A program made the position numbers and the translations under genes. The notes beneath the pieces were generated by a model. The model did not search any database. It was not told where the DNA came from and saw only the letters and a list, made by a program, of their open reading frames with translations. A DNA stretch of 64,000 nucleotides from an uncultured Lentisphaerales bacterium (GTDB lineage: Bacteria > Verrucomicrobiota > Kiritimatiellia > RFP12 > CAYQJG01). Positions 40,994 through 63,263 of the stretch are shown piece by piece. How positions within the stretch are numbered: position 1 is the first letter of the stretch; each line of letters starts with the position of its first letter. Where the stretch lies: positions 48,370-112,369 of the forward strand of contig CAYQJG010000003.1 in assembly GCA_964417715.1 (NCBI GenBank), in the 5' to 3' direction.

Positions 40994-41021
40994 GGGGAAT
41001 CCCCATAAAGCGTGGAAACTC

Positions 41022-42164: not shown

Positions 42165-42440
42165 GGGTTCACCGGATAGGAACGAACCTCCAGCGCCCGC
42201 CTTGACAAAGACCGCTGCCTTGGCTGTATATTCACGCATCTGCAGGATTCCTTGCCGTTTGACATTTCCCTTTCAATAGGGAGAAGTTAGGCTTTCGAGG
42301 CTCATTCGCAAATGGACGGTATTGCGAATTTGATGTATATTCTTGCAACACCAGAAGGGCAGAACCGGCATGTCTGCCAGGGCCATGCGCATCAGCCCGT
42401 CCACACTCTCCCACAACTATGCCGCCGAAGCCGGCCACCC
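42165..42440. promoter_or_regulatory. Inverted copy of the araC/adh divergent promoter with decayed adh and araC stubs
   Basis: Reverse-complement match to ~57337-57553. The araC start is fused to the araC HTH segment ~56655-56718. The adh stub is frameshifted. Confidence 0.9.
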
Positions 42441-42486
42441 GCCGAATTGTCTTCACTCATTGCTCTTTGGCTTGGCGCGCGCTATT

Positions 42487-42710
42487 TCACATCGACCGTA
42501 GTTTCCAATCCGTATCGGAACTGCCAGCCTTGACGGCAACGGGATAGAACTTGTCGGGCCAACTCTTCTGGGGCTCGATTACCGCCCAGTCGCCCATGTA
42601 GCACATGACGTAGGAGCAATGGGTGACGCCCAGACCATCGATTTTACCGAACACGTCCGGCACCAGCATAATGCACTTCTGCGGATTGAGCGGATTGGGA
42701 CGCCCCCAGA
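42487..42710 (-). pseudogene. C-terminal fragment of an alpha/beta hydrolase paralog
   Basis: PNPLNPQKCIMLVPDVFGK...CYMGDWAVIEPQK aligns with PNPLNPQRYVLLVPEVMGK...CYLGDWLVIEPQK of 33145-35253. Confidence 0.85.
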
Positions 42711-42770
42711 CAGCAAACTCGCCAAGGCGCTGGAGATGACAAGGCGGAATCGTATGTCGAAATGCAACCC

Positions 42771-43856
42771 CTATTTTGAGCCTGATCCGGGAGCTTGCAG
42801 CTTCAGCCATCCCGCCCCCACCAGGAGCCGCCGCGCGTTGTGGCAAAACACGTCCTCGATGTCGGCCCGCGTAAGACCGACACGCTCTGCCGCGCGGTGG
42901 AAGGCCATAAGCTCCTCGTACAGAAAGAGGGTCAGGCGCTCTGCCTCGGGCCCCTCAACCTCCTCCATGTTCCGGTCGCCGGACACGTCGCCGTAAAGCC
43001 CCTTGGGAACCACATTGACATAGCGACCGTCGCGCACGATGCGCCGCATGCGCATGCGTAGGATGGGCAGGTCGGTGCCGAAGAGCATCCGCTGCGGTCC
43101 CACGCAACGCAACGCCTGCCCGAAGACCTGATCGTTGGTGTTGGCGCTGAAGTCGAAGCACAGCCGTTCGGTCGCGGCCAATACCTCGAAGGCATTGCCG
43201 ACGTCCTCGTTGCAGTAAGCGCGGCCGACATGGGCGACGATCAGCTTCAGATTCGGGAAGTCGCGCTCGATTTCCAGCAGGTGCGCCAGGTTGAGCGGAT
43301 CCCTGAGCCGCCCGTCACGCGGGATGTGCAGCATTATGATCGAGCCATGGCGGTCATGCACCTCAAGTTGATGGCGCGGGAAGAAGTCGAAGATGCAGAT
43401 ATCCCTGGCGGGGGTATGGGCCGGGGCCAGCGAAAGGTAGCTCTTGGCGCCGACAAACCCGCCGGCCAGGGTTTTCGCCTCGAGTTCCGCCGCGCTCCAG
43501 ACCGGGTCGGTGAAGATCAGCGCCGGCACGTTGGCACGCCGCGCACAGTCGGCCACATAGGCGTTCTGCCGGTCCAGGTTGCCGCCCACAGGCAGGTTCG
43601 CGAAGATCAGCGGCGTGACGCGCTTGCCGGGCAGCAGCAGGCGGTAGGTCTCCTGCAGGTCCTCGATCGGATTCTCCGCGGCGACGAGCGACGGCCAGGT
43701 GACCGTGCGCTTCTCTCCGGCCTGCGGAACCGGCGGCGGGAAATCGGCCCTGCGCCAGACGTGCGTGTGGATGTCCACCAGCTCGTCCGGCAACCAGTCC
43801 TGCAGGCGCTCCGCATAGAAGCGCCGGTCGACCTCCTTGAGAGTGATCCGTTCCAT
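42771..43856 (-). CDS. Amidohydrolase 2 family protein
   Basis: DIHTH, GAKSY, MLH, VAHVGR, LFGTDLP and HNARRL motifs. Confidence 0.88.
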   Translation of the reverse strand: MERITLKEVDRRFYAERLQDWLPDELVDIHTHVWRRADFPPPVPQAGEKRTVTWPSLVAAENPIEDLQETYRLLLPGKRVTPLIFANLPVGGNLDRQNAYVADCARRANVPALIFTDPVWSAAELEAKTLAGGFVGAKSYLSLAPAHTPARDICIFDFFPRHQLEVHDRHGSIIMLHIPRDGRLRDPLNLAHLLEIERDFPNLKLIVAHVGRAYCNEDVGNAFEVLAATERLCFDFSANTNDQVFGQALRCVGPQRMLFGTDLPILRMRMRRIVRDGRYVNVVPKGLYGDVSGDRNMEEVEGPEAERLTLFLYEELMAFHRAAERVGLTRADIEDVFCHNARRLLVGAGWLKLQAPGSGSK

Positions 43857-43927
43857 GGAATCCTGTTTCGTTCGCGTGACTAGCTTGACATCGTTCTTAC
43901 CCGACGTCCACTCCGCGTCGAGGGTCA

Positions 43928-45499
43928 TCACCTACGCGGAGTGGAGATTGTCGGCGTGGCGGTCTCCTCGCCAAACTTCCGCCGCAGGGCCGCGACCTCC
44001 TTCTTCAAGGCAGGCAGGAATCCGGGACTCAGCACCTTAGTCTCCTCGCCCACATCGAGCATCTCGCGCAAGACCTGCGCCCCGTCAGACTCCGGGTATG
44101 CGTCCACGATGGCGCGGGCGTCCTTGTAGGCCGCCACGAGTTGGCCGTAGCCATCAAGCAGGCGTTGGGCGATGGGCAGGAACGCCGCCGGCTCGCTCAA
44201 TGCCGCGCGCACCTTCCTCCAATCCGCGTAGGCGCGGTAGACGGGGGCGAAGGTTACCATGTCCTTCATGATGGCGCTGAAGTTGGCTGCCGTGTCGCCC
44301 GCGTCGGGCACGAAGCCACCGAACACGCCGGCACGGGTGTCATAGCGTTCCTGCTGCCAGTCGTCGTTGCGGTAGCGGTTGCGGTCCGCCTTCTTGCGGA
44401 AATCCGGAACCTCCATGGGCTTGCCGCCCTCCATCGAACTGCGCAGCGCCTGGATACCGGGGATGGTCACGTCGCAGCCACCGTAGATGTCGAACGGACC
44501 CTTCTCGCCGGTGAGGATCTCACGGGCAAAGTGATAGAGTGTCCAAAAGTCACCGCCGCCGTGCCCGGTCTGCGCGGCCAGTTCGCCCAACCCTTCCCAG
44601 CAGGGGTTCACGGCCAGCATCGGAGAACCGCCCGAGGCCCCGAGGCGCAGTCGAACCCCGTCGTGTCCGATCTCGTAGGCGCCGAGCGTCCCCCACATCC
44701 GTTGCTGGTGGCTGTCGTTGGTGCCGGCCCCCATCAGGTTGCGGACGACGGCACCGTTGTTCATCTGGATCAGTGAGGGGGTCATCCTGCCGTTGCTCGC
44801 GCCGTGGTTGCGCAGGTAGCCGGCAATGGTGGGCCGGGCGCAGAACGTCTCCACCGCCACTGGCCGCGTACCCGTGATGGCCATGACCGGTCCCAGCGAG
44901 TGCGTGCAATAGTAGTGGAAGTCAAACCAGCTCCGCCAGTTGTGCACCATGTGCCCCGGCTTGACGGGAATGCCATCAATGTAGGTATAGGCCAGCGAGC
45001 GGCATTCATGGACGTACTCGTATTCGGCGTAGGCCAGTTCCCCGAACAGCCCCTCCCGCCAGCGGTTGGCCAGCCACATGTTGGCGGCCGAAAACGGATA
45101 GTTCTCGGCCAGATTGTACACCAGCTTGCGCTTCTCCACCTCCTCCACCAGCTTCACCCCCTCGGCCAGGGTGAAGAACGAGGTCACCTCGGAGAGCACA
45201 TGCTTGCCCGCCTGCAGGCACTTGATGGCATGGGGGCCGTGGGCCGGGCAGAAGGTGGCCAGCAGCACCGCGTCGAAGTCCTGCTTGAGGAAATCGGACT
45301 CGTTGTCGGTCACGAAGGCACCCGGATTGTGCTGTAAGAAGCCTTCCCGCATGTGGGCGTTGTAGTCGCACCCCGCGACCACGTCAATGTTGAGGAACTT
45401 GCAGGTGCTGAAGAAATTCATCCCCCGCCCCAGTCCCCATATTCCCAGCCTGATCCGCCTATCCGTGTCAAACACCCGTGGAATTGCTGCCTTCTTCAC
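43928..45499 (-). CDS. Gfo/Idh/MocA oxidoreductase (GH109-like)
   Basis: GIWGLGRG, AGKHVLSEV, AENY, EYVH, YCTHSLGP and GHGGGD motifs. Confidence 0.88.
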   Translation of the reverse strand: MKKAAIPRVFDTDRRIRLGIWGLGRGMNFFSTCKFLNIDVVAGCDYNAHMREGFLQHNPGAFVTDNESDFLKQDFDAVLLATFCPAHGPHAIKCLQAGKHVLSEVTSFFTLAEGVKLVEEVEKRKLVYNLAENYPFSAANMWLANRWREGLFGELAYAEYEYVHECRSLAYTYIDGIPVKPGHMVHNWRSWFDFHYYCTHSLGPVMAITGTRPVAVETFCARPTIAGYLRNHGASNGRMTPSLIQMNNGAVVRNLMGAGTNDSHQQRMWGTLGAYEIGHDGVRLRLGASGGSPMLAVNPCWEGLGELAAQTGHGGGDFWTLYHFAREILTGEKGPFDIYGGCDVTIPGIQALRSSMEGGKPMEVPDFRKKADRNRYRNDDWQQERYDTRAGVFGGFVPDAGDTAANFSAIMKDMVTFAPVYRAYADWRKVRAALSEPAAFLPIAQRLLDGYGQLVAAYKDARAIVDAYPESDGAQVLREMLDVGEETKVLSPGFLPALKKEVAALRRKFGEETATPTISTPRR

Positions 45500-45539
45500 A
45501 ATCGTTCCTTTCTTTTGGATGACATCCTACGCGCTCACC

Positions 45540-46712
45540 TCATCCGCGCCCGTGTTTCCGGTAATGCGCGAAGCCTTCGATCAGGGTCTTGATGTTCTCC
45601 AATGGTACGCCAGGGGCGACGGAACTGCTGCAGCCGAGCATGAGGCCGACTCTTGGCCCCTTCTCCACCAGCCACGCCATCTCGCGCGTGACGTCGGCCG
45701 GCTTGCCGAGCGGCAAGGTGGTGGTGACCGAGACGCCGGCGATGATGAAGAGATCGCCGCCGTCGCGGGTCTTCATCTGGCAGATCTTCTCGTAGTCCAT
45801 GCCGTCCTCGTACTGGAAGCCCTGGAAGCCGCCGATGCCGCACTCCAGCAGGCGCGGCACCATGTCCATCAGGTTGCCGTCGCAATGCCAGATCAGGCGG
45901 ATGCCGGCGTCGAGCAACGGCTTGATCGAGCGGGCGAAGTGGGGGAACCAGATGGCGTCGAGGGTTTTGATGTCCACCAGCATGCCGCGCGAATCGGCCA
46001 TGTCGTGATCGAGCCTCAACAGCCGCGGCAGGCCGCCCTCGATGATGGCACGGGCGGCAATGCGGTTGGAGACGGTCGCCGCATCGGCGTTGATCCTGAA
46101 TCCCCGCTCGATCACCTCCGGATAGAGCGCGTAGGCCATGAAGTAGTTGGCGTAACCGTAATGCCAATAGAGAAGCTCCGGGAAGGCGAAGAACCCGCCG
46201 TAAGGGCCCTTAAGCATGTTCATGCCGAAGAGCTTCTGAACTTCGACCTCGCCGGCAATGCGCTTGCGCACTTCCTTATCCGCGTTGGCTTCCAGATTGC
46301 GCCGCCGCTGTTCACACTGCGGGAAGAGAAACTTTTCCATGTGCTCGACGGCAGCCTCAGGCGAATCGATCACCATGCCGTCGCGAACGATCTCCTCAGC
46401 GCCGGTCGTGGCGCCACGCTCGGCGGCCGTGTCGTAGCCCTGGTCCTTCATGCTCAGGGGGTTCGTGGGAATCCACTGGTCAATGAAGCAGCACCCGGCT
46501 TTGAGGTGGAACTCGCGGTAGACGCGGACCGGATCCTTCTCATAGCTGCCGGGCGCATTGCCGGAGATCTCATCCTGGTGCGACCACTGCATGTCGTTCA
46601 GGAACCACGCCGGGATCCCCCGCGTCGGCTTCAGCGCAATGGTATCCAGCGCCAGTTGCGCGTTTTCCTGCCAGTTGCCCTCAAATTCCTGATATCCGAT
46701 GATGTTGCTCAT
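45540..46712 (-). CDS. URO-D/MtaA-CmuA superfamily protein
   Basis: DHDMAD, WHCDGN, FQGFQYE and VAPGVPLENI motifs. Confidence 0.75.
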   Translation of the reverse strand: MSNIIGYQEFEGNWQENAQLALDTIALKPTRGIPAWFLNDMQWSHQDEISGNAPGSYEKDPVRVYREFHLKAGCCFIDQWIPTNPLSMKDQGYDTAAERGATTGAEEIVRDGMVIDSPEAAVEHMEKFLFPQCEQRRRNLEANADKEVRKRIAGEVEVQKLFGMNMLKGPYGGFFAFPELLYWHYGYANYFMAYALYPEVIERGFRINADAATVSNRIAARAIIEGGLPRLLRLDHDMADSRGMLVDIKTLDAIWFPHFARSIKPLLDAGIRLIWHCDGNLMDMVPRLLECGIGGFQGFQYEDGMDYEKICQMKTRDGGDLFIIAGVSVTTTLPLGKPADVTREMAWLVEKGPRVGLMLGCSSSVAPGVPLENIKTLIEGFAHYRKHGRG

Positions 46713-46741
46713 GTCTTCCCTTCATACTGAACACGGACTGA

Positions 46742-48139
46742 TCAGATCCTCACGACATCCAGCCCGCACTGGCGGCCGAAGGCGGCGATGGCCTCGGCGC
46801 GGTCACCCAGGACCAGCGCGCTGTGGTGGGTACCGCCGGCGCGGGAATAGGCCTCCAGGAAGGGCGCTACCGGCATACGCGGACGCACCCAGGTGCGCAC
46901 CACGTCGCGCATGGCCGGGTCAAGCGAGGCGTCCTCGGCCATGACGTCAACCGGGGCAACAATCAACACGAACGTATTGTCCGGGCCGGGGGCGAGGTTG
47001 ACGAACACGGCCGGGCCGGGCTTGGCGACGCAGGTCAGGATGGCCGGGTCGAGCGAGCCGCCGCTGAAAAACGGCTTGGAGATGACGCGCGGGCGCTCGC
47101 CGGCCACCGTCGGGCTGATCTCGCCCATGTGCGAGAGGAACAGGCTGTTGCCGGCCCAGTCGGCGCAGAAGATCTCGGTGAAGGTCACGGTGCCGAAGGC
47201 CCGCGTCAGGGCGCCGACCAGCGCGGCGGTGAGCACGTCGCCCTCGCCGGCATAGCCGAGTCCCCGCCCCATCGCCTTGGAGATCTCGAAGAACGGCATG
47301 GTGTTGGCCGGCCGGTCGCCGCGGTTGAAGGCCTGGAAATTGACGCTGAGCCCGCGGTACCCGCCCTCGTCCAGGAGGCGACGCAGCCCCAGCCCGACGC
47401 GCACCGAGCGCGCATGGGCCTCGGCGGGCAGCTCGCAGGCGTAACGCCCGCGATCCTCCGCGACTTCGCGCTCCACCTCGGTATCGGTCACCTTCAAGAT
47501 GGCCGCGTCGAGCTTGTCGAGCCCGATCTGCTTGACACTGACCCCCAGCTTGGCGGCCAACACCTCCTCGGACACGGCGAAATCGCCCATGCCGGCAAAG
47601 GTTTCGCCGACGCGCAGGATGCGGCTGCCGCGGAGGGACTTTGCCCCGGCGGCGGCGCGCACCAGTGCCGCCGTCCGGTCCAGCAGCGCCGGATCGGCGT
47701 CGTGGCCGGCAACGATCTCGAAGGCGCGGCGGTGACGGCGCAGCATCGAGGCGAAGTCCATCACGCCGTGCACGCCGTGGTTGTACATGATGCGGTCGGC
47801 ACGCGCGCCAACACCGAAGTCCGCGTCCATGGTGGTGTCGAGAATGACGATGGGGAGCTTCGTCGCCAGGCAGGCGTCAAGCGCCTCGAGCGAAGGGGAG
47901 TAGGCCAGATGCACCGTGACGATGCACTCCACCCCGGCGGCATCGAACTGGCCGATGGCGTCCGTAAACTCCCCGGCTACGCGGCAGACCGGCGCGGTCT
48001 GCACCGCCAATCCACGCGCCGCAAGCCCGGCGGCGATCCGCTTGATGAAGCCGTCGAAGCCTGGCCGGTAGGTGGGCAGGATGTCGTCGTAGAGCTTCAA
48101 GTAGAAGGGCAGGAGACCGGCTTTGAGCTGTTGGTTCAT
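46742..48139 (-). CDS. L-arabinose isomerase-like sugar isomerase (AraA/FucI superfamily)
   Basis: NHGVHG, YAGEGD, FTE, SHMGE and GGTHH metal-ligand motifs. Confidence 0.82.
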   Translation of the reverse strand: MNQQLKAGLLPFYLKLYDDILPTYRPGFDGFIKRIAAGLAARGLAVQTAPVCRVAGEFTDAIGQFDAAGVECIVTVHLAYSPSLEALDACLATKLPIVILDTTMDADFGVGARADRIMYNHGVHGVMDFASMLRRHRRAFEIVAGHDADPALLDRTAALVRAAAGAKSLRGSRILRVGETFAGMGDFAVSEEVLAAKLGVSVKQIGLDKLDAAILKVTDTEVEREVAEDRGRYACELPAEAHARSVRVGLGLRRLLDEGGYRGLSVNFQAFNRGDRPANTMPFFEISKAMGRGLGYAGEGDVLTAALVGALTRAFGTVTFTEIFCADWAGNSLFLSHMGEISPTVAGERPRVISKPFFSGGSLDPAILTCVAKPGPAVFVNLAPGPDNTFVLIVAPVDVMAEDASLDPAMRDVVRTWVRPRMPVAPFLEAYSRAGGTHHSALVLGDRAEAIAAFGRQCGLDVVRI

Positions 48140-48211
48140 GGTCTGGTTCCTTGCGTACGTTCCATCGGATTGGACTGACCAGACTGATCCGACCGATCTC
48201 ATGCTGGTTGC

Positions 48212-49528
48212 CTACACACCGATCCCCTGCCCCGCCAGGAGGGCGGCGCCGCGGGCGCCGGCGGAGCGGCCGCCGATACTCACTTCAAGCCCGCTGATTC
48301 CGGCCACGATCTGCGGCCAAAGCGGGCTGTTGGCCGGACCACCAACCATCACCGCACGGGTGTAGTGCAGGCCATGGGTTTTCAAGGCCATGATCTTGGC
48401 GTTCAGCAGCCGGGCGGCGCCTTCCATGATGGCACGACTGAGGTTGCGGCGGTCGCCCGCAAACGGCCGCGGTGGTTCGCGGAGGTCGATCTCCAGCCCG
48501 CCGGCACCGGGTTCGGCCTGCGCCGCAAACTCGTTGAAAATGCGCAACCGGTCGGACTCACCCGGGGCGATGACGTTCTCGATATACCAGTCAATGCTCC
48601 GGCCGATGTATGGCACGGAGAAGATGCCGCCCCACGGCAGGCCCTCGTCGGCAAGGAATGGATCGCACAGCATGCCGGCGTCGATGATGGCCTGCCGGTC
48701 CCGGCAGGGCGCGAACCCCACCCACGAGGTGCCGCAGGACAGCATGAGCTGGCCCGGCTCCACCACGCCGACGGCGCGCGCCGCGGCCGGATGGTCGAAA
48801 CAGCCGGTAACGACGGTGGTCCGGGCGGAGAGTCCGGTGTCGCGCCGGGCCTGCTCGGTCAGCGGGCCGACGACCGCGCCGGAGGGCACGAGCGCCGGAA
48901 GTTTCTCCCGTGGGATGCCAAGCCGCCGGAGGAACGGTTCATGGTACGTGCGGGAGATCTGCTCCTGCAGATGGAAGGTGGTGGCGGTGGAATGGTCCAT
49001 CAGCCAGCGGCCGGTTAGACGCCACAGCAGCCAGTCGGTATCCATGCCGTAGCGTCCGGCGGTCCGGTAGAGATCCGGACGGTTCTCCCGCAGCCACGCC
49101 AGATGCCCCAGCGGGAAGCTGGTGACGCAGGGCCAGCCGGTGATTTGGGTGACCTCCGCCGAAGTGAGGCCGGCCAGGTCGGCGGGGGGTTGCTGTTCGG
49201 CGCGATGGTCCATCCAGTTGATGATGTTCATCAGGGGCGCGCCGGCGGCATCGGTCAGCAGGGTGTTGCCGGAGGCGGCGGCCATGGCGATGGCGCCGAC
49301 CTCGCCGGGAGCGGCTGCGACGAGGTCACGGATCACGCCGCACACATTCCGGTAATGCCGTTGCGGATCCACCTCCACCCAGCCCTCATGGGGGTGGATG
49401 AAAGTGGAGTCTGCGCCGGCCTCGGCCAGCACCACGCCCCGGACATCCGTCAGGACACCCTTGATGACGCTGGTGCCCAGATCCAGCCCGATGAGGCAGG
49501 CTTCAGGGTTGCATGCGGCGGTTTTCAT
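48212..49528 (-). CDS. FGGY-family carbohydrate kinase
   Basis: IGLDLGTSVIK, GWVEVDP, WMDHR, GCFDH, SCGTS and MVGGPA motifs. Confidence 0.9.
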   Translation of the reverse strand: MKTAACNPEACLIGLDLGTSVIKGVLTDVRGVVLAEAGADSTFIHPHEGWVEVDPQRHYRNVCGVIRDLVAAAPGEVGAIAMAAASGNTLLTDAAGAPLMNIINWMDHRAEQQPPADLAGLTSAEVTQITGWPCVTSFPLGHLAWLRENRPDLYRTAGRYGMDTDWLLWRLTGRWLMDHSTATTFHLQEQISRTYHEPFLRRLGIPREKLPALVPSGAVVGPLTEQARRDTGLSARTTVVTGCFDHPAAARAVGVVEPGQLMLSCGTSWVGFAPCRDRQAIIDAGMLCDPFLADEGLPWGGIFSVPYIGRSIDWYIENVIAPGESDRLRIFNEFAAQAEPGAGGLEIDLREPPRPFAGDRRNLSRAIMEGAARLLNAKIMALKTHGLHYTRAVMVGGPANSPLWPQIVAGISGLEVSIGGRSAGARGAALLAGQGIGV

Positions 49529-49564
49529 GTTCGACAAAACACCCACGTCATGGAACCGACGGCC

Positions 49565-50410: not shown

Positions 50411-51978
50411 GCCAGCGCCGCCAGCGCCCGGTGCATGGCGTCCACCACGAAAGCAATCACCGCCCGGTCGGCAGTCAGCGGCAATTTGGTCAGCACCACC
50501 GGGGGGCAGTCCGCCTTGTAGGTCTGGGCGCTCAGGTCCAAACCACCCCGGTTCAGTTCGGCGGCGAAAGCGTTGGCCCTGCCCCGGTCAACGAAACAGA
50601 TGGTGGTCATATGGCGCCAGCCATCAACCCCGATAACGGCACGGGGAAATCGGGCGGCCAGTTGGCGGACCTGCGCCTCAAATTCGGCCCCCAACTCCGC
50701 CGTCACGGCGGCGTTGGCTTGCGCCCATTCCATGGTGACCAGATAAGCCAGGGAGGCAAGTTCCTCCTGGCCGTTGGTCACCAGGGCGCCAAACTGGGGC
50801 ATGACATCCATGGCGGCGCTGAACAGAATGCGCGAGGCGGGATATTCGCCGCCGGGGAACCCCTTACCGACCGCCACAAAGGTCGGCTTGAGCCCATACT
50901 CGCGGAACATGAACAGTTGCGGCGCCCACATGCAGGACTGGATCTCGTCCACCACGGTCGGCACATCGTGCTTCTCACAAAGGCCATGGGCATGGTGCAG
51001 AAACTCCGGCGTCAGGCGGCGGCCGCCATAGTTCATCATGATGACTTCATGGAAGAAGCCGGCAATCTTGTAATCGCCCTGTTCATATTCACTGAAGGCC
51101 CGGTCCAGATCTCCCAGGCAGTTGGGACGGATGGGAACCACTTTCCAGGCACCGGCGGCGGTCAAGATTTCATGCAAGCCCGGCCACATTCCCCGCATCA
51201 TCTGGGTGAGCACCGTGGTGCCATGGTAGTTGGCCTGCACCCCCCCATCGTCGTTGCCCATCACCAGGATGACCGGGATGCGGCCCTGATAGCGGGGGGG
51301 TGGCATCTCCGGCTGCATGCGATGGAAACGGGCGAGAACCATCTTCAGCGCGGCCTCCACCGCCAAACTGCCAGTCTCCAAGTTCAGCACCCGGTTGAGC
51401 ACCCGGAGGTCATCCTGGCGCGCCATCACGGCCGCCAGTCCGGCCTGGTCCTCCCGTGACAAGCCGTTGGCCGTGCGGATGAGTTCCTCCTCCAGCCGGC
51501 GGGTGATGAAACCGCGTGTGTTGTTGTGCGTGGCATTCGGGATACCAAGCGCCCGTGCCTGACCCAGAAGAGCATAGCCGGGAAAGCCATGTCCCAGCGG
51601 CGTATGGTAATGCTCGCTCTTGGTGATCAGGTACAACCGCCCGTCCTCCCCGAGCCGGTAATAGCCCAGGGCGCTCAACGGCGCCGCTGCGGTTGAGGCC
51701 GCCGCGCAGAACTTTGAGGAACCCGCACCGGCGGCCGTGCGGGCCAACGGCCCGGCAAGTACCTGCCTGCCCACCTGATCCAGCATGCCCGCCAAGCGCC
51801 TCTGCAATGCCTGTGGAAAGAAGTCGACAGGCTGACTCGCGGCGACCTCCAGATCACCCGGCTGCTCGCCGGCGAGGCACGCCCGCGCCCCGCACGCCGC
51901 TTTCACATAGTCTGTCCCAAGCAGGTCTGTCAACGACCGTGCCACGGGAACGAACGCACTGGAACCAGAGTTGCACAT
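50407..51978 (-). CDS. Class III PLP-dependent aminotransferase
   Basis: TGSLAVEAALK, YHGTT, VVDEIQS and VGKGFPGG (PLP lysine). Confidence 0.88.
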   Translation of the reverse strand: MCNSGSSAFVPVARSLTDLLGTDYVKAACGARACLAGEQPGDLEVAASQPVDFFPQALQRRLAGMLDQVGRQVLAGPLARTAAGAGSSKFCAAASTAAAPLSALGYYRLGEDGRLYLITKSEHYHTPLGHGFPGYALLGQARALGIPNATHNNTRGFITRRLEEELIRTANGLSREDQAGLAAVMARQDDLRVLNRVLNLETGSLAVEAALKMVLARFHRMQPEMPPPRYQGRIPVILVMGNDDGGVQANYHGTTVLTQMMRGMWPGLHEILTAAGAWKVVPIRPNCLGDLDRAFSEYEQGDYKIAGFFHEVIMMNYGGRRLTPEFLHHAHGLCEKHDVPTVVDEIQSCMWAPQLFMFREYGLKPTFVAVGKGFPGGEYPASRILFSAAMDVMPQFGALVTNGQEELASLAYLVTMEWAQANAAVTAELGAEFEAQVRQLAARFPRAVIGVDGWRHMTTICFVDRGRANAFAAELNRGGLDLSAQTYKADCPPVVLTKLPLTADRAVIAFVVDAMHRALAALA

Positions 51979-51982
51979 GCAA

Positions 51983-52037
51983 TGTTTCTTTATGTTCTTC
52001 TTTGTGCGTATCGTACACCAACGGCGCGCGGCGTCAA
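51983..52037 (-). promoter_or_regulatory. Sigma70-like promoter with phased direct repeats (candidate DeoR operator)
   Basis: TTGACG-16-TACGAT; TGTT/TGTT/TGTG at 51983, 51993 and 52003. Confidence 0.6.
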
Positions 52038-52159
52038 GTGCAAATCCAAGCCCGGGCAGGCCAGGGATCCAGTCAGTCTCCAGATCCGTCAGCGGTGGGT
52101 TGGGTTTCTGTCCGCAGATCAGGTTCAGCTCCTGCGGCCACACTATTGCTGCACTTGCT

Positions 52160-53203: not shown

Positions 53204-53511
53204 AGGTCGAGGTTCTCGTAGAACTCCACGCGGACGCTGCGGAAGAAGGGCACCTGCTGACGAAAGAGTTCCTCATGAGCCGGGTTGCCCTCGAAAAAGG
53301 CCAGCGCGGCATTCGCGGCGTCAAGCGATGGAAATTCGCCTTGCCAGACCAGGGTGTTACAAGCGGCGGCGGCGGAAATGGGTTTCAGGCGCCGTCCCTT
53401 GGGAAAGTCGGGGCGGGTCCGCTCCAGGTCCGCGAACTTGCGCTCAAGGGCCAGAAACTCACGCTCGTGGCGAACATCGTACTCCTGCAGGATTCGCATC
53501 GTCACGCTCAT
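53200..53511 (-). CDS. Small hypothetical protein (NIPSNAP/dimeric alpha-beta barrel-like)
   Basis: Operon-embedded ORF with GAGGA RBS and GTGA overlap; LVWQGEFPSLDA pattern. Confidence 0.65.
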   Translation of the reverse strand: MSVTMRILQEYDVRHEREFLALERKFADLERTRPDFPKGRRLKPISAAAACNTLVWQGEFPSLDAANAALAFFEGNPAHEELFRQQVPFFRSVRVEFYENLDL

Positions 53512-53530
53512 CGGGTTCTCCTCCCTCTGC

Positions 53531-55440: not shown

Positions 55441-55476
55441 GCACACCGTCCTTCCTGCACACAGAGCCCTTGCCGA

Positions 55477-56238: not shown

Positions 56239-56461
56239 CGTCGTTTTCCCTTCGTGACCCCTCAGTGTTGGCACGGACGATTCATCCTCACATCGGGTGG
56301 GTAGCCTGTCAGAACGGCGGATCAACGTCAAGATCGCCACCAACCCGGTACGCGTTTCGAAGGCCGGACAGGGACAGACCGGAACTGCCGCCCCCTGTCG
56401 CCAACCCATTGCGTTCTCGGGGTTGCAGGCTAAACCGTGAAGTTGGTCTTGGTTTGGCGGA

Positions 56462-57343
56462 CTATTTTGACCGGCTCGTGTTGAGCGTGCGGCGGTAGGC
56501 GGCCGGTGGAAGTGAAAAGTGACGGTGGAAGGCTTTGGATAGATGGTAGGCATCGCAGAATCCGGTCTGGGCAGCCACGGCATCCAGTTTCAACCCGCTC
56601 ATGATCAGGGCTCGGGCGGACTCCAGCCGCATGCGGTTGAAGGTGGCCAGGGGGGGGCGGCCGGCTTCGGCGGCATATTTGTGGGAGAGTGTGGACGGGC
56701 TGATGCACATGACCCTGGCGACTTTCGCGAGTGAGATCTGGCCTCCGACATGGCCGGAGAGGATCGCATCTACTTCCGTTACAAAGGACGAGGACGACCC
56801 GACGGGGTCCGGGCCAATGGCCAGGTCCGTGCCCGCTGTTTCCGGCACGACCCGGCGCAGGAGATGGATCACGGTGCACAACGCGGCTTGCGCTGCCCAG
56901 AACCCGGCTGCGCCATGTTCTACCCCAGCGCTGGCGGCCGCCTTCAGTTGGGGCAGCAGGAGGCCCTGCGTATCCCGGATCCGCGCGAAACACCGCCCCT
57001 CGGGAATCACCTCCGCCAGTCCGGCCTCGTATCCGCCTTCGAAGATGACGAAGGCGGATTCAATCATGCGGGTGCAGGATCGCTGGTCCTGCCAATAGGT
57101 CGTATGCGGCGGGTAGAGGTGCGCAACACCCGGGGGACGTTCCAGCCAGGGGGACCTGGCGGTGCCAACGCGGACTAGCCCGCAGTGACTGCATGAATAG
57201 TCCAGCACCCAGCAGGGAAACGCAAACCGCCCGTTGAAGCGGCAGGGGATGCTGGTGCCGTGCATGGCGGTGTTGACCCGCGGCAAGAGCCGGCCCGATT
57301 CCTGCCATGAGTATCCGCCAATCGATCCGGGGTTTGCAGACAT
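56462..57343 (-). CDS. AraC-family transcriptional regulator
   Basis: ISPSTLSHKY...RMRLESAR...VAAQTGFCDAYHLSKAFHRHFSLPP. Confidence 0.92.
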   Translation of the reverse strand: MSANPGSIGGYSWQESGRLLPRVNTAMHGTSIPCRFNGRFAFPCWVLDYSCSHCGLVRVGTARSPWLERPPGVAHLYPPHTTYWQDQRSCTRMIESAFVIFEGGYEAGLAEVIPEGRCFARIRDTQGLLLPQLKAAASAGVEHGAAGFWAAQAALCTVIHLLRRVVPETAGTDLAIGPDPVGSSSSFVTEVDAILSGHVGGQISLAKVARVMCISPSTLSHKYAAEAGRPPLATFNRMRLESARALIMSGLKLDAVAAQTGFCDAYHLSKAFHRHFSLPPAAYRRTLNTSRSK

Positions 57344-57473
57344 GCCGGTTCCGCCCTTCTGGTATTGCAGGAATATACATTAAATTCGCAATACCGTCTA
57401 TTTTCAAATGCGCCTCGAAAGCCTAAATTCTCTCCATTCAAAGGGAAATGGCAAACGGCAAGGAATCCTGCAG
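57344..57473. promoter_or_regulatory. Divergent araC/adh promoter region
   Basis: Leftward TAGACG-17-TATATT (57400-57372); TATTGC...GCAATA dyad; conserved in two other copies. Confidence 0.7.
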
Positions 57474-58589
57474 ATGCGTGAATATACAGCCAAGGCGGCG
57501 GTCTTTGTCAAGGCGGGGGCGGCGCTGGAGATTCGTTCCTATCCGGTGAGCCCGCCGCGGGGCGACCGGGTGTTGCTGAAGCTCAAGTTGAGCGGGATTT
57601 GTGGCACGGACATCCACATCCTTTCGGGACGGCTTCCGATCCCGCCGTCCTTCATCCCCGGCCATGAGTTCATCGGGACGGTTGAAGCAGCCGGTCCGCG
57701 GGCGAAGGTGGATGGTTTGGGACAGGCGCTGCGGACGGGTGATCTGGTGATTGCCTGTGTTGCCGATCCCTGCGGCAAGTGCTTCACCTGCAAGCGGGGT
57801 GGACAGGCCAACTGCCTGAATTTCGGGGTCACCAACATCCGGAATCCGCAAGAGGCACCCCACCTGTTCGGCGGGTTCGCGGAGCGGTTGTACCAGCCGG
57901 CCGCCACGCTCGTGCGCGTGCCGCGGGGGATTCCCGCCGAGGCGGTGGCGGCGTTTCCCTGCGCCGGTCCGACGGCGATCCACGGGTTCGGTCGGGCAGG
58001 CGGGCTCTCCAAGGGAGAGCTCGTGGTGGTCCAGGGCACGGGGCCGGTGGGGCTATTCGCCATTGCCTGGGCGCATGCGGCCGGATGCCGGGTGGCGGCG
58101 ATCGGGTCGGCGTCCAACCCTGAGCGCATGGCCCTGGCGCGCCGGCTCGGGGCGGAGAAGATCTGGGACTATCGTGCCGGTACCCCGGCTGACCGTGCGG
58201 CGGAGATCAAGGCCTGGGGTGCGCGTTACAAGCGCGGGGACGGCGCGGACGTGGTCTTCGAGGCTAGTGGTGCCCCGGCGGCCATTCCCGAGGGGCTCGG
58301 CATGGTGCGAACCCTGGGGCGCTACATTGTGCCTGGCCAGTATTCGGCCAGCGGAAGCGTGGCCATCAACCCCGAACAGATCACCTTCAAGGCGCTGACC
58401 ATCGTGGGGAGTTCCCAGTACGCGCTGGCCGATATCAAGTCCTATCTGGCGTTCCTGAAGGCCAACCCGCGGCTCCACGGGCCATTTGCCGCCTGTATCA
58501 CCCACCGTTTCAAGGTGGATGAGGCGGCCAAGGCTTGTGCCGACGCGTCGGCCGGGAGAGCCGTGAAGGCGGTGTTTGAAGGGGTATGA
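57474..58589 (+). CDS. Zinc-dependent alcohol/sugar dehydrogenase (MDR family)
   Basis: GICGTD, GHEF, CGKCFTC...C structural Zn site and GTGPVG. Confidence 0.93.
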   Translation: MREYTAKAAVFVKAGAALEIRSYPVSPPRGDRVLLKLKLSGICGTDIHILSGRLPIPPSFIPGHEFIGTVEAAGPRAKVDGLGQALRTGDLVIACVADPCGKCFTCKRGGQANCLNFGVTNIRNPQEAPHLFGGFAERLYQPAATLVRVPRGIPAEAVAAFPCAGPTAIHGFGRAGGLSKGELVVVQGTGPVGLFAIAWAHAAGCRVAAIGSASNPERMALARRLGAEKIWDYRAGTPADRAAEIKAWGARYKRGDGADVVFEASGAPAAIPEGLGMVRTLGRYIVPGQYSASGSVAINPEQITFKALTIVGSSQYALADIKSYLAFLKANPRLHGPFAACITHRFKVDEAAKACADASAGRAVKAVFEGV

Positions 58590-58590
58590 C

Positions 58591-60681
58591 ATGATCCGGC
58601 AGGCAAACGCATTGGGGTGGCGCGAGCTGTTGACATCGCTGCGAACCGCCCGCCACGCATGGACTGGAAAGTATGACATCCGGCCGTACTGGCGCGAGTT
58701 GGCTTTCTTGGAGCATGCCGGCGCGCCGTTGCCGGTGCAGTGGGCGCAGACTTTTGCCGCTGTGCTGGACCACATGGAATTGCACACCTGCCACGGTGAG
58801 GCGATCCTGGGAAGCCGCCTGGGTTTCATGGCCCGGCAACTCCCGGAAGGGCAGGATCAAGCCGGTTTCACGGCCCTGGTAGAGGCGAATAGCCGCCGGC
58901 GCCGCCGTGACTTCGGCGCCGGGTGGGATCATACCCTGGCGGACTATCCCACCCTGTTGGCTGAAGGAGTGGGGGGATTGCTGGCCCGCATCGAGGCTTC
59001 CTCGCTGACGCATCCCGAACCCGCTGAACAGGCGGCTTTGCGCGGCATGCGCATCACCCTGGAAGGGCTCAGTCGCTTCATCCTCCGGCATGCCGGCCTG
59101 GGTGCCGTCCCGGAAATGCGTGCCCGGCTTGAATGGATCAGCCGACACCCGCCGCGTACCTTCCATGAGGCCATCCAGTTGGTGTGGCTGACCCATCTGG
59201 CCTTTGTCAGCGAGGGGCGTTTTGCCAATGCCCTGGGGCGGATCGACCAATACCTGTGTCGTTTCTACGAGGCGGACCTGGCTGCTGGCCGGCTTGATCG
59301 TGAGGGCGCCCTGGAGCTGCTCTGCTCCCTCTGGGCGCGTGTGGATGAATTGGGGGAAGTGACGAACATTTGCATCGGTGGCGTCAGGCCGGACGGGCTG
59401 GATGGCACCAATGACCTTTCCGCCCTCTGCATTGAGGCGACCCGGCTGGTGAAGTCACCCTCCACCAACCTGTCGGCCCGGTTTCATGATGGCACGCCGG
59501 ATACGTTTCATCGGCAGGCCTTCGAGTGCATCCGCACCGGGCTGGGTTTTCCGGCCATCTTCAATGACCATGTGTTGATCCCCGGACTGGTGGAGATCGG
59601 CATTCCGGTTGAGATCGCGCGTGACCATTGCATGGTCGGCTGCATCGAGACCATGCTGGCCGGGCGGCAGCAGGCCTGGTCTGACAGCCGTTACAATGCG
59701 CCCGTCAATGTGCTGGCGGCCCTCCGGCGGCTGGCGGCCGAACCCGTGCCAGGCTGGGAACGGTTGCAGGAGCTGTTTGCCGAGGAGTTCCGGAGCGGCG
59801 TGGCCCGCCATGTGGCATCCGTGAATGCCCACATCGCCTCGTTCCCGGCGACGGATTTCCCCGACCCCTTCCTGTCGGCGCTGACCCGCGATTGTATCGG
59901 GCGTGCCCGCGACCTGAATGATGGGGGGGCGGAGTTCCGGAGGTTCCACGGGGTGGCGGTCATGGGGCTGGCCAATGTGGCCGACAGCCTTGCCGCAGTG
60001 AAAAAGCTGGTCATCGAGGAGCAGAAGGTGGATCTGGCCGGGTTGATCGCTGCGCTGGAGCGCGACTTTGAAGGGAACGAGCCCCTGCGGCAGATGTTGA
60101 TAAATCGGGCGCCGAAGTACGGAAATGGCGAGCCCTATGTGGATGATATTGCCGCCTGGATGGTCCAGCTGGCCGCCGAAACCTGTCTGCAGCATGCTAC
60201 CGTTGACGGGGGGCGGTTTGTCGCCGCCATGGCGGCGAATGTCTCCAACATCTATGCCGGGCGGGAAGTCGGCGCCACACCGGACGGGCGGCGGGCCCAT
60301 ACGCCGCTGTCCGACGCGGCATCGCCCTTCTTCGGCAGGGACACGCATGGCCCGACAGCCTTCCTCCGCTCCGTGGCCCGCCCCGATTACCGGCTGGTGC
60401 TCACGGGAAGTGTGATCAACATGAAGTTCGAGCCCGACTACTTCGATGGGGAAGAGGGGGTTGCAAGGTTCGGTGCGCTCACGCGCTTCTTTGTCCGCCA
60501 CCGGATTCCTGAACTCCAGTTCAACTTCACGGGCACACAAGCCTTGCTTGCGGCGAAGCAGCATCCGGAGAACCATCGTGACCTGGTGGTGCGCGTCAGT
60601 GGTTTCTCGGGCTACTTCGTCTGGCTGGCCCCGGAAGTCCAGGATGACATTATCCGCCGCCGCAGCCATGGTGCGCCATGA
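58591..60681 (+). CDS. Glycyl radical enzyme (PFL2/dehydratase-like), substrate unknown
   Basis: TFHEAIQ, GRIDQYL, GCIE Cys loop, PKYGN, GATPDGR and LVVRVSGFS Gly loop. Confidence 0.93.
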   Translation: MIRQANALGWRELLTSLRTARHAWTGKYDIRPYWRELAFLEHAGAPLPVQWAQTFAAVLDHMELHTCHGEAILGSRLGFMARQLPEGQDQAGFTALVEANSRRRRRDFGAGWDHTLADYPTLLAEGVGGLLARIEASSLTHPEPAEQAALRGMRITLEGLSRFILRHAGLGAVPEMRARLEWISRHPPRTFHEAIQLVWLTHLAFVSEGRFANALGRIDQYLCRFYEADLAAGRLDREGALELLCSLWARVDELGEVTNICIGGVRPDGLDGTNDLSALCIEATRLVKSPSTNLSARFHDGTPDTFHRQAFECIRTGLGFPAIFNDHVLIPGLVEIGIPVEIARDHCMVGCIETMLAGRQQAWSDSRYNAPVNVLAALRRLAAEPVPGWERLQELFAEEFRSGVARHVASVNAHIASFPATDFPDPFLSALTRDCIGRARDLNDGGAEFRRFHGVAVMGLANVADSLAAVKKLVIEEQKVDLAGLIAALERDFEGNEPLRQMLINRAPKYGNGEPYVDDIAAWMVQLAAETCLQHATVDGGRFVAAMAANVSNIYAGREVGATPDGRRAHTPLSDAASPFFGRDTHGPTAFLRSVARPDYRLVLTGSVINMKFEPDYFDGEEGVARFGALTRFFVRHRIPELQFNFTGTQALLAAKQHPENHRDLVVRVSGFSGYFVWLAPEVQDDIIRRRSHGAP

Positions 60682-61637
60682 ACGCGGGGCCCCAGGCGCA
60701 TGAAGCCTCACCTGCCATCCGGGGGATGGTCTTTGATATCCAGCCGTTCTCCCTGCACGATGGGCCGGGAATCCGTACCACGGTGTTCCTGAAAGGATGC
60801 CCGCTGCACTGTCCCTGGTGCCATAATCCTGAGTCCTGGCAGGCGTCTGGACAGATTGCCTGGACGCCGGAGTTGTGCGTGGGGTGCGCCGCGTGCAGCC
60901 GGGTATGCCCCGCTGGCGCCCACCGGATGGACCCGGGCAGGCATGCGTATGACCGGCCGCGCTGCCAGGCCTGCGGTAAATGCGCTGAGGTTTGTCCATC
61001 CAGGGCACTGGAGTGGTCCGGCCGGAGACTGTCGGTCGCGCAGGTGATGGAGCGCGTCCTTGTGGATCGCGAGTTTTACGGCGGATCCGGCGGCGGGATG
61101 ACGGTGTCCGGCGGTGAACCGCTGGCACAGGCGGAATTTACCGCGGCGCTGCTGGATGCCGGCCGCTCGGCTGGAATTCATACGGCCGTGGACACCTCAG
61201 GCGCCGGACGGCTGGACGATCTCCGGCGTATGGCCAGCCGGTCGGATCTGGTGCTGTTCGACATCAAGGCCGCGCCGGAAGATTATGAGCGCCTGACCGG
61301 TGCCCGCTATGAGCAGGTCGTGGCGGGCCTGCAGGTGATCCGGTCACAGGGCCTTGCGCTCTGGCTGCGGTTGCCCATGATTCCCGGAGTCAATGATTCC
61401 CGGAACCATTTTGAAAACATCGCGAAGCTGGCCGATGAGTTCCGGCCGGACCGGATTGAGATGATCCCCTACCATGTGCTGGGGGCAGGCAAGCGGACAC
61501 GCTTCGGATTGGCGCCAACCCCCATGCCCGATCAGCCCCCGGCGGAACCCGGCCAGATCAAGCAATGGGCCGGATGGTTTCGCGAATTGGGGGTGAATGT
61601 GGCCATGCCGGACACGGGCCGCGGGCGCGCAGGCTGA
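60678..61637 (+). CDS. Glycyl radical enzyme activase (radical SAM, with ferredoxin insert)
   Basis: HDGPGIRTTVFLKGCPLHCPWCHNPE; two CxxCxxCxxxCP motifs; SGGEP. Confidence 0.95.
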   Translation: MNAGPQAHEASPAIRGMVFDIQPFSLHDGPGIRTTVFLKGCPLHCPWCHNPESWQASGQIAWTPELCVGCAACSRVCPAGAHRMDPGRHAYDRPRCQACGKCAEVCPSRALEWSGRRLSVAQVMERVLVDREFYGGSGGGMTVSGGEPLAQAEFTAALLDAGRSAGIHTAVDTSGAGRLDDLRRMASRSDLVLFDIKAAPEDYERLTGARYEQVVAGLQVIRSQGLALWLRLPMIPGVNDSRNHFENIAKLADEFRPDRIEMIPYHVLGAGKRTRFGLAPTPMPDQPPAEPGQIKQWAGWFRELGVNVAMPDTGRGRAG

Positions 61638-61679
61638 ACGGGGGCTCGTTCACCTCGTGGCATCGCATTCAGGTATCCT

Positions 61680-63029
61680 TCATCCGGAGATTTTCCTCGT
61701 CCGGATGAGGTCGCGATAGAAACGGAAACTGTCCTTGGGGATGCGGCGCTGGGTCGGGAAGTCGACGTAGACCAGGCCGAGGCGCTGGCCATAACCCAGG
61801 GTCCATTCGAAGTTGTCGAAGAACGACCAGGCGAAGTAGCCGTCCACGCGGTAGCCATCTTGCATGGCCCGGTGCATTTCGCGGATATTCTCGCGGAGGA
61901 ACCGGATGCGGTCCTCGTCATGCACGCGGCCGTCATGCACGAGCACATCGACGCAGGCGCAGCCGTTTTCGGCGACATGCAGCCGCTTCACCGGATAGTT
62001 GTCCCACACGTGCTTGATGCTCCAGTACATGGCGCGCGGCGTGACGACCCACCCCATGCTGGTGCGCGGCGCGTCGAATGCCGGCATGATCTCCCGGTAC
62101 CCGGCAGGGGTGTCGTCGGCCGCCACGGCAAAGCCGCCGTAGCAGTTGAGGCCGAAGAAATCGAGCGGCGTCGCGATGACGCGCAACTCCTCGTCCGTGA
62201 TTCGCGGCTCCTCACCCGGCTTCCAGGCATTGGCGGGATAGCGCCCCTTGTAAAGCGGGTCGAAGAGCAGGCTGCTCTTGTCCAGGAAGCAGCGCTCGGC
62301 CGCCCGCACATCCCGCGGCTTCTTCTCGTCCGCCGGCATGCGCAGCCAGAAGGCGTGGACGAGGCCGACGTCCACCTTGCGTCGCGCCCGAGCGCGGATG
62401 GACTGCACCGCCAGGCCATGCGCCAGATGCACATGGTGCAGCACCTGGTTGTTCACCCGCGGGGAGAGCAACAGCCCGGGCGCGTTCCACCCGCCCTGGT
62501 AGCACCCTTCGTAGATGTGCTTGATCTCGTTGAAGGTGATCCAGTCCCGCACGCGGTCCGACAGGCGCTCGGACATCAGCCCCGCGTAATCCGCAAAGGC
62601 CTGAACCACGTCCTTGTTGCGCCAGCCGCCCTGGTGGTCGAGCGCCAAGGGCATGTCCCAATGGTGGAGGTTCACGAACGGCCGGATGCCGTTGGCAAGG
62701 AAGGTGTCGATGAGGCGATCATAGAAGTCGAGCCCCTTGGGGTTGGGTTTGCCGACTCCCCGGGGAAGCACGCGCGGCCAGGAGATCGACAGGCGGTAGG
62801 CCTGCAGCCCGCACTTCGCCATCAGCGCGATGTCGGTCTTGTAGCGGTGGTAGTGGTCGATGGCGATGCGTCCGTCGTCGCCGCCCTTGATCTTGCCGGG
62901 GACGCGGCAGAAGACATCCCAGTTCGACGCGCCCTTGCCGTCGGCGCGCCAGGCACCCTCGGTCTGGAAAGCCGAGGCGGCCGCGCCCCAGATGAAGTTC
63001 TTCGGAAAACGGCATACGGTCTGGCTCAT
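61680..63029 (-). CDS. GH1 beta-glucosidase
   Basis: FIWGAAASAFQTEG, DHYHRY, YRLSISWPR, TFNE, VAENG and WSFFDNFEW motifs. Confidence 0.95.
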   Translation of the reverse strand: MSQTVCRFPKNFIWGAAASAFQTEGAWRADGKGASNWDVFCRVPGKIKGGDDGRIAIDHYHRYKTDIALMAKCGLQAYRLSISWPRVLPRGVGKPNPKGLDFYDRLIDTFLANGIRPFVNLHHWDMPLALDHQGGWRNKDVVQAFADYAGLMSERLSDRVRDWITFNEIKHIYEGCYQGGWNAPGLLLSPRVNNQVLHHVHLAHGLAVQSIRARARRKVDVGLVHAFWLRMPADEKKPRDVRAAERCFLDKSSLLFDPLYKGRYPANAWKPGEEPRITDEELRVIATPLDFFGLNCYGGFAVAADDTPAGYREIMPAFDAPRTSMGWVVTPRAMYWSIKHVWDNYPVKRLHVAENGCACVDVLVHDGRVHDEDRIRFLRENIREMHRAMQDGYRVDGYFAWSFFDNFEWTLGYGQRLGLVYVDFPTQRRIPKDSFRFYRDLIRTRKISG

Positions 63030-63047
63030 GTACTCTCCTGTCGGTTA

Positions 63048-63263
63048 GATCACACCGCGGCTTGCGCTGCCCAGAACCCGGCTGCAGCATGTTCTGCCCC
63101 AGCGCGGGCGGCCGCCTCCGAAGATGATCAACCTGATATTGCACGAATATACATTAGATTCGCAATGCTGTCTATTTTCGAATGCGCCTCGAAAGCCTAA
63201 CTTCTCTCTATTCAAAGAGAAATGGCAAACAGCAAGGAATCCTGCAGATGCGTGAATATACAG
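63048..63263. promoter_or_regulatory. Third copy of the araC/adh divergent promoter, with araC debris and an adh start stub
   Basis: Matches ~56867-56945, ~57033-57048 and 57360-57489 (ends ATGCGTGAATATACAG). Leftward TAGACA-17-TATATT. Confidence 0.9.

Follow-up and report, generated by a model that had tools for sequence, protein, structure and literature searches.

A 64,000-nucleotide (nt) stretch of DNA from an uncultured Lentisphaerales bacterium (hereafter the window; 64.6% G+C, on contig C3 of a 200-contig assembly of 4.8 Mb that is 90.5% complete) carries three copies of the divergent control region that separates the gene of an AraC-family regulator (araC) from an operon for a Zn-dependent alcohol dehydrogenase (adh), a glycyl radical enzyme (GRE) and its activase. 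The copy between the intact genes is designated A, and the two others B and C. We interpret B and C as decaying paralogous copies of A, which segmental duplications within a single glycan-catabolic island of ~30 kb would have left behind, and which microhomology-mediated deletions would then have trimmed. At C, the copied region would have been captured as a promoter region by a glycoside hydrolase family 1 (GH1) gene and a secreted esterase-like gene, whereas B is likely a bystander. We assign to this reading as a whole a probability of roughly 0.6.

Three copies of one control region

Homology was determined by a repeat search in the window and by self-BLASTN against the whole assembly. As a result, A 57336-57553 was found inverted at 42377-42165 (218 columns, 90.4% identity, E 3e-79) and A 56652-56719 inverted at 42443-42376 (92.6%, E 2e-19), giving B, and A 57359-57489 was found in direct orientation at 63133-63263 (131 nt, 92.4%, E 4e-47) and A 56877-56943 at 63051-63117 (92.5%, E 6e-19), giving C, to which a 16-nt piece also belongs (A 57033-57048 at 63112-63127). 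B and C are 88.5% identical to each other over 131 nt. The three-way alignment of the shared 131 nt contains no indel and 18 variable columns, comprising 3 specific to A, 8 to B and 6 to C, and 1 that differs three ways. A first-pass annotation, made from the letters alone, had described the recurrence of 57344-57473 in inverted and direct orientation with a colinear core; both points were confirmed, with the ends a few bases off (42443 instead of 42440, and 63051 instead of 63048). The self-BLASTN search that it had proposed for further copies returned exactly three in the whole assembly, namely A, B and C, all inside the window and within 21 kb. It had also described the coding flanks as deleted or frameshifted, and araC and adh are indeed broken in both copies, although the araC deletion in B is in frame. 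Because both hold broken araC and adh stubs, the alignments indicate that B and C derive from the intact araC/adh locus. A comparison of the core DNA with 40 genomes of the same order gave no real match (one 31-nt chance match, E 5e-5), and an exact 22-mer of the invariant stretch gave 0 matches in metagenome_contigs, where records near this genome may be omitted.

Three dispersed copies at ~90% identity might also be expected of a small mobile element that bears a promoter and resembles a miniature inverted-repeat transposable element (MITE), and the genome does contain MITE-like repeats. However, the ends of B and C differ and lie inside araC and adh coding sequence, neither terminal inverted repeats nor target duplications are seen, and the copies number only 3 and are confined to 21 kb; hence such an element is, in our estimation, a highly improbable source.

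The source locus and its conserved direct repeat

The source locus comprises the following features.

56462..57343, minus strand: AraC-family regulator gene, intact, 293 amino acids (aa), source of the araC stubs (Pfam HTH_18 and HTH_AraC)
57344..57473, no strand: master control region A, the araC/adh divergent intergenic core (repeat search and alignment)
57365..57390, plus strand: putative regulator-binding direct repeat in A, TTGCA and, 21 nt on, TCGCA
57372..57400, minus strand: promoter-like TAGACG-17-TATATT in A, pointing to araC (consensus scan)
57474..58589, plus strand: adh, with the likely ATG at 57474 (Pfam ADH_N and ADH_zinc_N)
58576..61637, plus strand: GRE (701 aa) and activase (319 aa) (Pfam and NCBIfam)

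The adh start at 57474 is supported by extrapolation of ortholog alignments, and the GH1 gene, convergent to adh-GRE-activase, follows the activase gene. In A, the direct repeat lies on either side of the -10-like TATATT in the promoter pointing to araC, and upstream of a candidate adh promoter, TTTTCA-17-TAAATT, which matches the consensus at 8/12 positions and falls under the scan threshold.

The GRE is a member of a separate orthologous group with 44-58% identity, which was found in 16 other genomes when 400 from the phylum were sampled. The AraC, ADH and GRE genes are adjacent in 10 of these 16 orthologous loci, with araC divergent from adh, and ADH and GRE are adjacent in 13. Many of the orthologous GRE frames are 921-951 aa long, extending ~230 aa further at the N terminus than the 701-aa protein. 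The module of araC and the divergent adh-GRE-activase operon is ancestral, and several families of the phylum have kept it. Island insertion or a Campbell-type event was weighed as another origin for the A/C pair and set aside; that araC and adh are ancestrally adjacent is nevertheless compatible with it.

Beside the araC start, the direct repeat has an AT-rich centre and reads TTGCA, then T(T/C)GCA 20-21 nt on. This pattern is present in 8 of the 10 orthologous araC-adh intergenic regions (L028, L031-L037, L039 and L042); two of the 8 are near-identical congeners, and the remaining 2 of the 10 show near-variants by eye. Base shuffles gave an expectation of 0.125 in 10 (maximum 2 in 2000), against which the enrichment is somewhat inflated, as the pattern was written after the sequences had been viewed, but still large; the background in the same loci was 0.048 per 260 nt. 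Because the direct repeat is conserved in orthologous intergenic regions, A is regarded as a genuine and ancient control region. The repeat is probably an operator bound by the AraC-type regulator, and, with both of its half-sites identical in A, B and C, the copies retain the best-supported element of A. In a genome-wide search for operator-like sites, 17 strict matches were obtained versus 26-33 in shuffles, so that no extra regulon members were detectable by it; among the operator-like sites, the AT-rich spacer was found only in A, B and C. Two other intergenic operator-like matches were rejected, having proved to be a MITE-like repeat. A MITE-like intergenic repeat of ~280 nt with terminal inverted repeats and 84-88% identity was observed at C115:4185-4463, C70:19488-19766 and C86:15788-15850.

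Copy C between GH1 and the esterase-like gene

The features of C and its neighbours are as follows.

61680..63029, minus strand: GH1 beta-glucosidase-type gene, the leftward target of C (Pfam Glyco_hydro_1, E 6e-138; TIGR03356, 505 bits)
63051..63127, no strand: two araC stubs of C (A 56877-56943 and A 57033-57048), which meet at an 8-nt microhomology (BLASTN and alignment)
63133..63247, no strand: core of C (A 57359-57473), with the direct repeat inside at 63139-63164
63174..63146, minus strand: promoter-like TAGACA-17-TATATT in C, 10/12 matches, pointing to GH1 (consensus scan)
63248..63334, plus strand: adh remnant of C, comprising the ribosome-binding site, the start codon and 5 codons, which open a 28-codon frame
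63365..64000, plus strand: 5' part of the gene for a secreted esterase-like protein (u702p) of 686 aa, the rightward target of C

C takes up 213 of the 335 nt that separate the GH1 start at 63029 from the likely esterase-like gene start at 63365, and each of the two genes is the first in its own transcription direction. C makes up most of the only stretch in which transcription of these two genes can begin. The position of C between a leftward GH1 gene with TAGACA-17-TATATT and a rightward secreted gene had been noted from the first, and it agrees with the scan: between 62950 and 63450, the site at 63174..63146 is the sole promoter-like one (1 found versus 0.3 expected), lies inside C and faces GH1. 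The TIGR03356 score of GH1 exceeds the NCBIfam cut-off. The 686-aa protein is 47% identical to the 702-aa protein encoded at 33145-35253, residues 246-308 of which resemble esterases, and the 28-codon frame ends 30 nt short of its gene.

The remains of the source genes in C allow a route to be proposed. Two deletions, of 95 and ~305 nt, have left 67 + 16 nt of araC, and 16 nt of adh remain; the 95-nt deletion lies between two copies of an 8-nt repeat present in A. At the junction of 63050 with 63051, the position 21 nt upstream of the GH1 start is joined to araC 56877 in the araC reading direction. This would be explained by a 6,174-nt tandem duplication of 56877-63050, which sets 63050 next to 56877, and by the subsequent loss of the second copy, beginning at adh codon 6, together with the two deletions within the araC stub. 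Measured from start to start, the two repeat spacings are 6174 and 5774 nt, and their difference of 400 nt equals the araC-stub deletions (95 + ~305). Furthermore, the region is prone to duplication, as seen in a GH123-like gene pair (95.3%), the D1 pair (91%) and the remnant of a third esterase-like gene, which are described below.

By these events, C would have given GH1 a leftward araC-type promoter, and the esterase-like gene an adh-side promoter, a ribosome-binding site and a short upstream frame, together with the intact conserved direct repeat, the probable site of the AraC-type regulator. The copied module therefore probably drives or modulates the transcription of both genes. Homology, stubs, deletions, retained motifs and gene layout are read directly from the sequence, whereas transcription from the copy, regulator binding and any selective value are what we infer.

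Copy B, the aminotransferase-derived module and the island

The features around B are as follows.

42165..42239, minus strand: adh stub of B (A 57474-57553) with a 5-nt gap, in a 53-codon frame
42240..42369, minus strand: core of B, inverted, with the direct repeat inside at 42323-42348
42313-42341, plus strand: promoter-like TGGACG-17-TATATT in B, facing away from the glycosidase genes (consensus scan)
42370..42501, plus strand: araC remnant of B, codons 1-2 fused in frame to codon 209 onward, in a 43-codon frame
41970..42125, minus strand: D1c, a copy of an aminotransferase promoter, its leader and the first ~20 codons (BLASTN versus 51910-52066, 91%)
51910..52066, minus strand: master of D1c, from upstream of a class-III aminotransferase gene into that gene
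33145..41867, minus strand: operon of a 244-aa secreted protein, two GH123-like genes and the 702-aa esterase-like protein
42487..42700, minus strand: C-terminal remnant of a third esterase-like paralogue, abutting B (protein and nucleotide match)

In B, the adh stub is 75 nt long, and 618 nt of araC (codons 3-208) have been lost in frame at a 2-nt microhomology. Since 4 of the 5 differences in the araC stub alter the residue, this stub is a dead remnant. B is inverted and would need a mechanism other than tandem duplication.

It had been proposed that B points into the genes of 41867-33145. This proposal found no support, as D1c intervenes and the one detectable promoter of B points in the opposite direction. 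D1c is a 156-nt module and a direct copy, to which the scheme proposed for C would apply with a duplicated unit of 42126-52066; it carries the promoter-like site TTGACG-16-TACGAT at 42097..42070 and lies directly upstream of the 244-aa gene, between B and the 41867-33145 genes. The proximal promoter of the glycosidase operon would thus be the aminotransferase-derived D1c, and on this ground B is probably uninvolved, or contributes at most from a distance; promoter capture at B is doubtful.

The 244-aa protein is CBM96-like by language-model features, which serves as a lead only. The GH123-like genes (35270-38073 and 38160-40957) form a 2.8-kb tandem duplicate with 95.3% identity, and this duplicate is younger than the promoter copies. 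In the remnant at 42487-42700, the final 67 residues align with residues 627-693 of the 702-aa protein at 55% identity, so that ~70 codons of the third paralogue are left and the first ~630 are lost. Taken together, D1c, the araC/adh copies, the esterase-like remnant and the GH123-like tandem pair demonstrate that the island holds several rearrangement scars of different ages. Elsewhere in the window, a segment of ~47-60 nt at 26540-26600 matches ~20 other contigs at 83-93% and may be a high-copy repeat or a conserved gene start, and 41 nt at an amidohydrolase stop (52129-52169) match contig C29 at 90%.

Weighing of promoter capture against neutral decay

A number of observations weigh against promoter capture and the route proposed for it. 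A core no more conserved than the coding stubs had been named beforehand as a result that would refute capture, and the mismatches to A were indeed 23/245 in the core (9.4%) and 13/234 in the stubs (5.6%; Fisher p 0.12), a difference that runs opposite to the one expected under capture. Copy-specific changes in the core (8/131 in B and 6/131 in C) were as frequent as in the stubs, and the comparison of core and stubs, which with 18 variable sites has little power, gave no sign of purifying selection on B or C. The longest invariant run, of 32 nt, was not significant (p 0.078), and the 10 motif bases would be kept in both copies by chance in an estimated ~15% of cases at ~8% divergence. B and C agree with each other against A at 3 positions, 2 of which fall in the hexamers of the candidate adh promoter, and at these 2 both carry the less consensus-like base; the consensus scan detected no adh-direction promoter in A, B or C. 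Beside C there are 89 unique nt, which leaves room for an older promoter. At B, the one detectable promoter points toward the araC remnant, a dead end, and D1c holds the sole promoter-like site that points into the 41867-33145 genes. With respect to the route, any direct downstream copy would fit, and therefore tandem duplication is parsimonious rather than proven; of the putative 6,174-nt second copy, 213 nt remain. Relatives did not show what the B and C sites looked like ancestrally: in an esterase-family search of metagenome_contigs, in which 152 of 527 candidate stretches were confirmed and 80 kept, the only two useful relatives were L044 (74% to the 702-aa protein, on a 2.8-kb contig) and L045 (~45%), and both were without synteny or core-like DNA. 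GH1, the GH123-like, 244-aa and other island genes were also not present in the fetched flanks of the 16 GRE loci, the single exception being an unrelated alpha/beta-hydrolase match at one locus.

Much of this would be accounted for if the copies were neutral scars, that is, duplication and deletion debris with no effect on expression, and the genes used older or aminotransferase-derived promoters. With the stubs as a neutral yardstick, for which the predominantly non-synonymous changes in the B araC stub speak, the core evolves as fast as dead sequence, ongoing deletions erode the copies, and the sole detectable promoter of B leads nowhere. The genome also contains 93 low-copy (2-4) dispersed repeat families of 60-450 nt, the copies of which are 58% coding versus 89% for random segments; this census used a crude gene caller that misplaces starts and is indicative only. 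In the same census, 50% of the copies versus 32% of random segments lay near a 5' gene end, and short intergenic duplications may be common. In contrast, no other promoter-like site exists at C between the two divergent genes, all deletions have left a core of 115-130 nt with the conserved repeat and the ribosome-binding site, and divergence has reached ~5-6% per lineage, by which point useless bacterial DNA has often been deleted. We regard neutral scars as a serious rival, though the less likely one, and favour with moderate confidence promoter capture at C.

The first-pass annotation had gone further and proposed regulon expansion by promoter capture. The origin of the copies and the leftward promoter-like site stood up to analysis, and the copies also proved to keep the putative regulator-binding repeat; the excess conservation of the core did not appear, and D1c intervenes at B. 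In its strong form, B and C would both function under selection as AraC-dependent promoters and would place GH1, the esterase-like and the GH123-like genes under the inducer of the GRE operon. In favour of this, both copies have kept the putative operator intact, all the targets are glycan-degrading or secreted and lie in the same island as the GRE operon, and two different promoters are stacked upstream of one operon. Nevertheless, the core is not conserved in excess, D1c stands between B and its supposed targets, and the hydrolases accompany the GRE in 0 of 16 orthologous loci, which leaves the proposed use of these hydrolases as a hint at the GRE substrate without comparative support. By homology, the best solved relative of the GRE is PflD (E 7e-93), with CutC (choline lyase) and glycerol dehydratase scoring nearly equally, and the GRE scores under the NCBIfam subfamily cut-off. 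PflD is described as a 1,5-anhydromannitol-6-phosphate C-O lyase in a review (PMC13450708). Selected expansion at both copies is therefore, in our judgment, unlikely.

A further alternative is that the element conserved and copied from the 5' region of adh is not a promoter but an RNA leader with a defined structure, or else a short upstream frame with a regulatory role. The last 32 nt of the shared segment, which hold the adh ribosome-binding site, the start codon and 5 codons, are identical in the three copies; B and C keep the start codon and an open short frame before the next gene, and a small hairpin near 57431-57446 has been preserved, although with changes on one side of its pairs. However, no Rfam match was obtained in 41000-64000 at E up to 1, 0 of 39 predicted pairs were compensatory in RNAalifold (which has little power with three sequences), the invariant run is not significant, as given above, and the frames of B and C are unrelated past codon 5. 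A conserved leader or frame is thus an improbable explanation, and the copying of a promoter region remains our preferred one.

Occurrence in independent samples and expression

The copies were also compared with sequencing runs. Of 16 listed runs, eight contain half or more of the words sampled from 56400-63500, and 4 of these 8 (X5, X6, X7 and X8, from 3 studies), which are freshwater or lake metagenomes by their records, were not flagged as a possible source and hold shares of 0.61-0.97. A comparison with four runs, all consisting of contigs, covered a 20-kb stretch around A and C and the longest pieces. One contig of run X5 spans 61054-63231 with zero differences and therefore shows that in a second, independent sample GH1, the araC stub and most of the core of C are contiguous; among the longest pieces, none bridges the right edge of C (63232-63264).

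The X5 contig passes from 63231 to 57458, which is the signature of a tandem repeat or an excised circle of a 5,774-nt adh-GRE-activase-GH1 unit. Most simply, this join is a path in the k=31 graph through a 32-nt identical word (57458-57489 and 63232-63263), and the depth over 57.3-63.3 kb is not raised, giving no sign of amplification.

An artefact of metagenome assembly has to be considered, given that the genome is a 200-contig bin, that the X5 contig crosses at an identical word and that the check covers the C side, B lying outside its 20-kb stretch. Against this, assemblers do not make copies that differ by 8-11%, the independent contig reproduces 61054-63231 exactly, and the four unflagged runs hold most of the sampled words. 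We consider an artefact very improbable.

In one metatranscriptome run, contigs match adh (57698-57940), GH1 (62188-62338) and two other island genes exactly at a depth of ~2. This is a weak sign of expression, which DNA carry-over may explain; stretches that lack RNA contigs are uninformative.

Comparison with known systems

Regulatory rewiring in bacteria is widely assumed to draw on promoter reuse, a route for which documentation is poor; surveys list thousands of similar upstream segments but do not show how these moved. Here, the route would be segmental duplication followed by collapse, readable from the stubs, the microhomology deletions and the intact source, and the conserved direct repeat offers a concrete candidate binding site. 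If the copies are active, GH1 and the esterase-like protein may be co-regulated with an uncharacterised GRE family, which would provide a handle on its substrate; if they are inactive, they could serve as a neutral yardstick for the decay of duplication debris in a free-living freshwater bacterium. In the widest, and tentative, extension, which we think has a small chance of being right, the AraC module and the unrelated aminotransferase promoter, both copied, wire GH1, the two esterase-like proteins and the CBM96-like/GH123-like operon into an anaerobic GRE-centred response. If true, this would be a step-by-step natural record of regulon growth and would point to a glycoside-derived substrate for a phylum-wide family of uncharacterised short GREs.

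In the araC-araBAD system, the regulator gene is divergent from the operon, and the half-sites of a direct repeat lie about two helical turns apart, one overlapping the regulator promoter and both being upstream of the operon promoter. The geometry of A appears to resemble that of AraC at araC-araBAD. Half-sites ~21 nt apart are conserved together with the regulator in 8 of 10 regions versus 0.125 expected. The half-site sequence, on the other hand, is specific here to the GRE-linked regulator family.

Promoter capture by tandem duplication at rnk-citT was reportedly found by Blount et al. in 2012 in the E. coli long-term evolution experiment. There, a duplication junction reportedly sets a gene behind a foreign promoter, and the junction of 63050 with 56877 would likewise put GH1 behind the araC promoter; the novel junction is found at 63050/63051. 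Unlike at C, where the duplicated unit is not in tandem today and a collapsed scar, ~8% diverged, is read from sequence, the tandem copies at rnk-citT persist and the phenotype was measured. In E. coli, promoter capture by deletion or tandem duplication via microhomology is also described from a laboratory screen with a reporter gene (PMC6614815). The short direct repeats at its break points have counterparts in the 8 nt and 2 nt at the internal deletions of C and B, whereas the event described here is natural and old and took place in an uncultured freshwater bacterium.

The closest comparison is with putative mobile promoters. According to a commentary (PMC3575422) on the survey by Matus-Garcia, Nijveen and van Passel (2012), more than 4000 families of upstream segments stand before unrelated genes, the threshold being 80% identity over 50 nt and the average between pairs 92%. 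Here too, similar non-coding upstream segments stand before unrelated genes, with 88.5-92.5% identity over 131 nt (A-C 92.4% and B-C 88.5%, and A-B 90.4% over 218 columns). The downstream adh, esterase-like, 244-aa, araC and GH1 genes have no mutual nucleotide match and differ in their Pfam families; the two esterase-like targets are paralogous to each other (47%) and not to adh. The segment also has no Rfam match at E up to 1 and no terminal repeats, and is thus not a known insertion sequence, tRNA or RNA family. Short repeats such as Correia elements and ERIC/REPIN, able to carry promoters to new genes, are mentioned in the same source (PMC3575422); in contrast to promoter-bearing MITEs, the three copies here have no terminal inverted repeats and no fixed ends, and they end in the coding sequence of the source genes. 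In that survey the mechanism of mobility is given as unknown, and its fixed range of -150 to -50 would overlap these copies only partly; here, stubs of both flanking genes show the source, the direction and a duplication-deletion route. The case therefore fits known putative mobile promoters and promoter capture, and what is particular to it is its legibility: both source genes have left stubs, two different promoters are stacked before one operon, and a phylum-wide footprint marks the likely operator.

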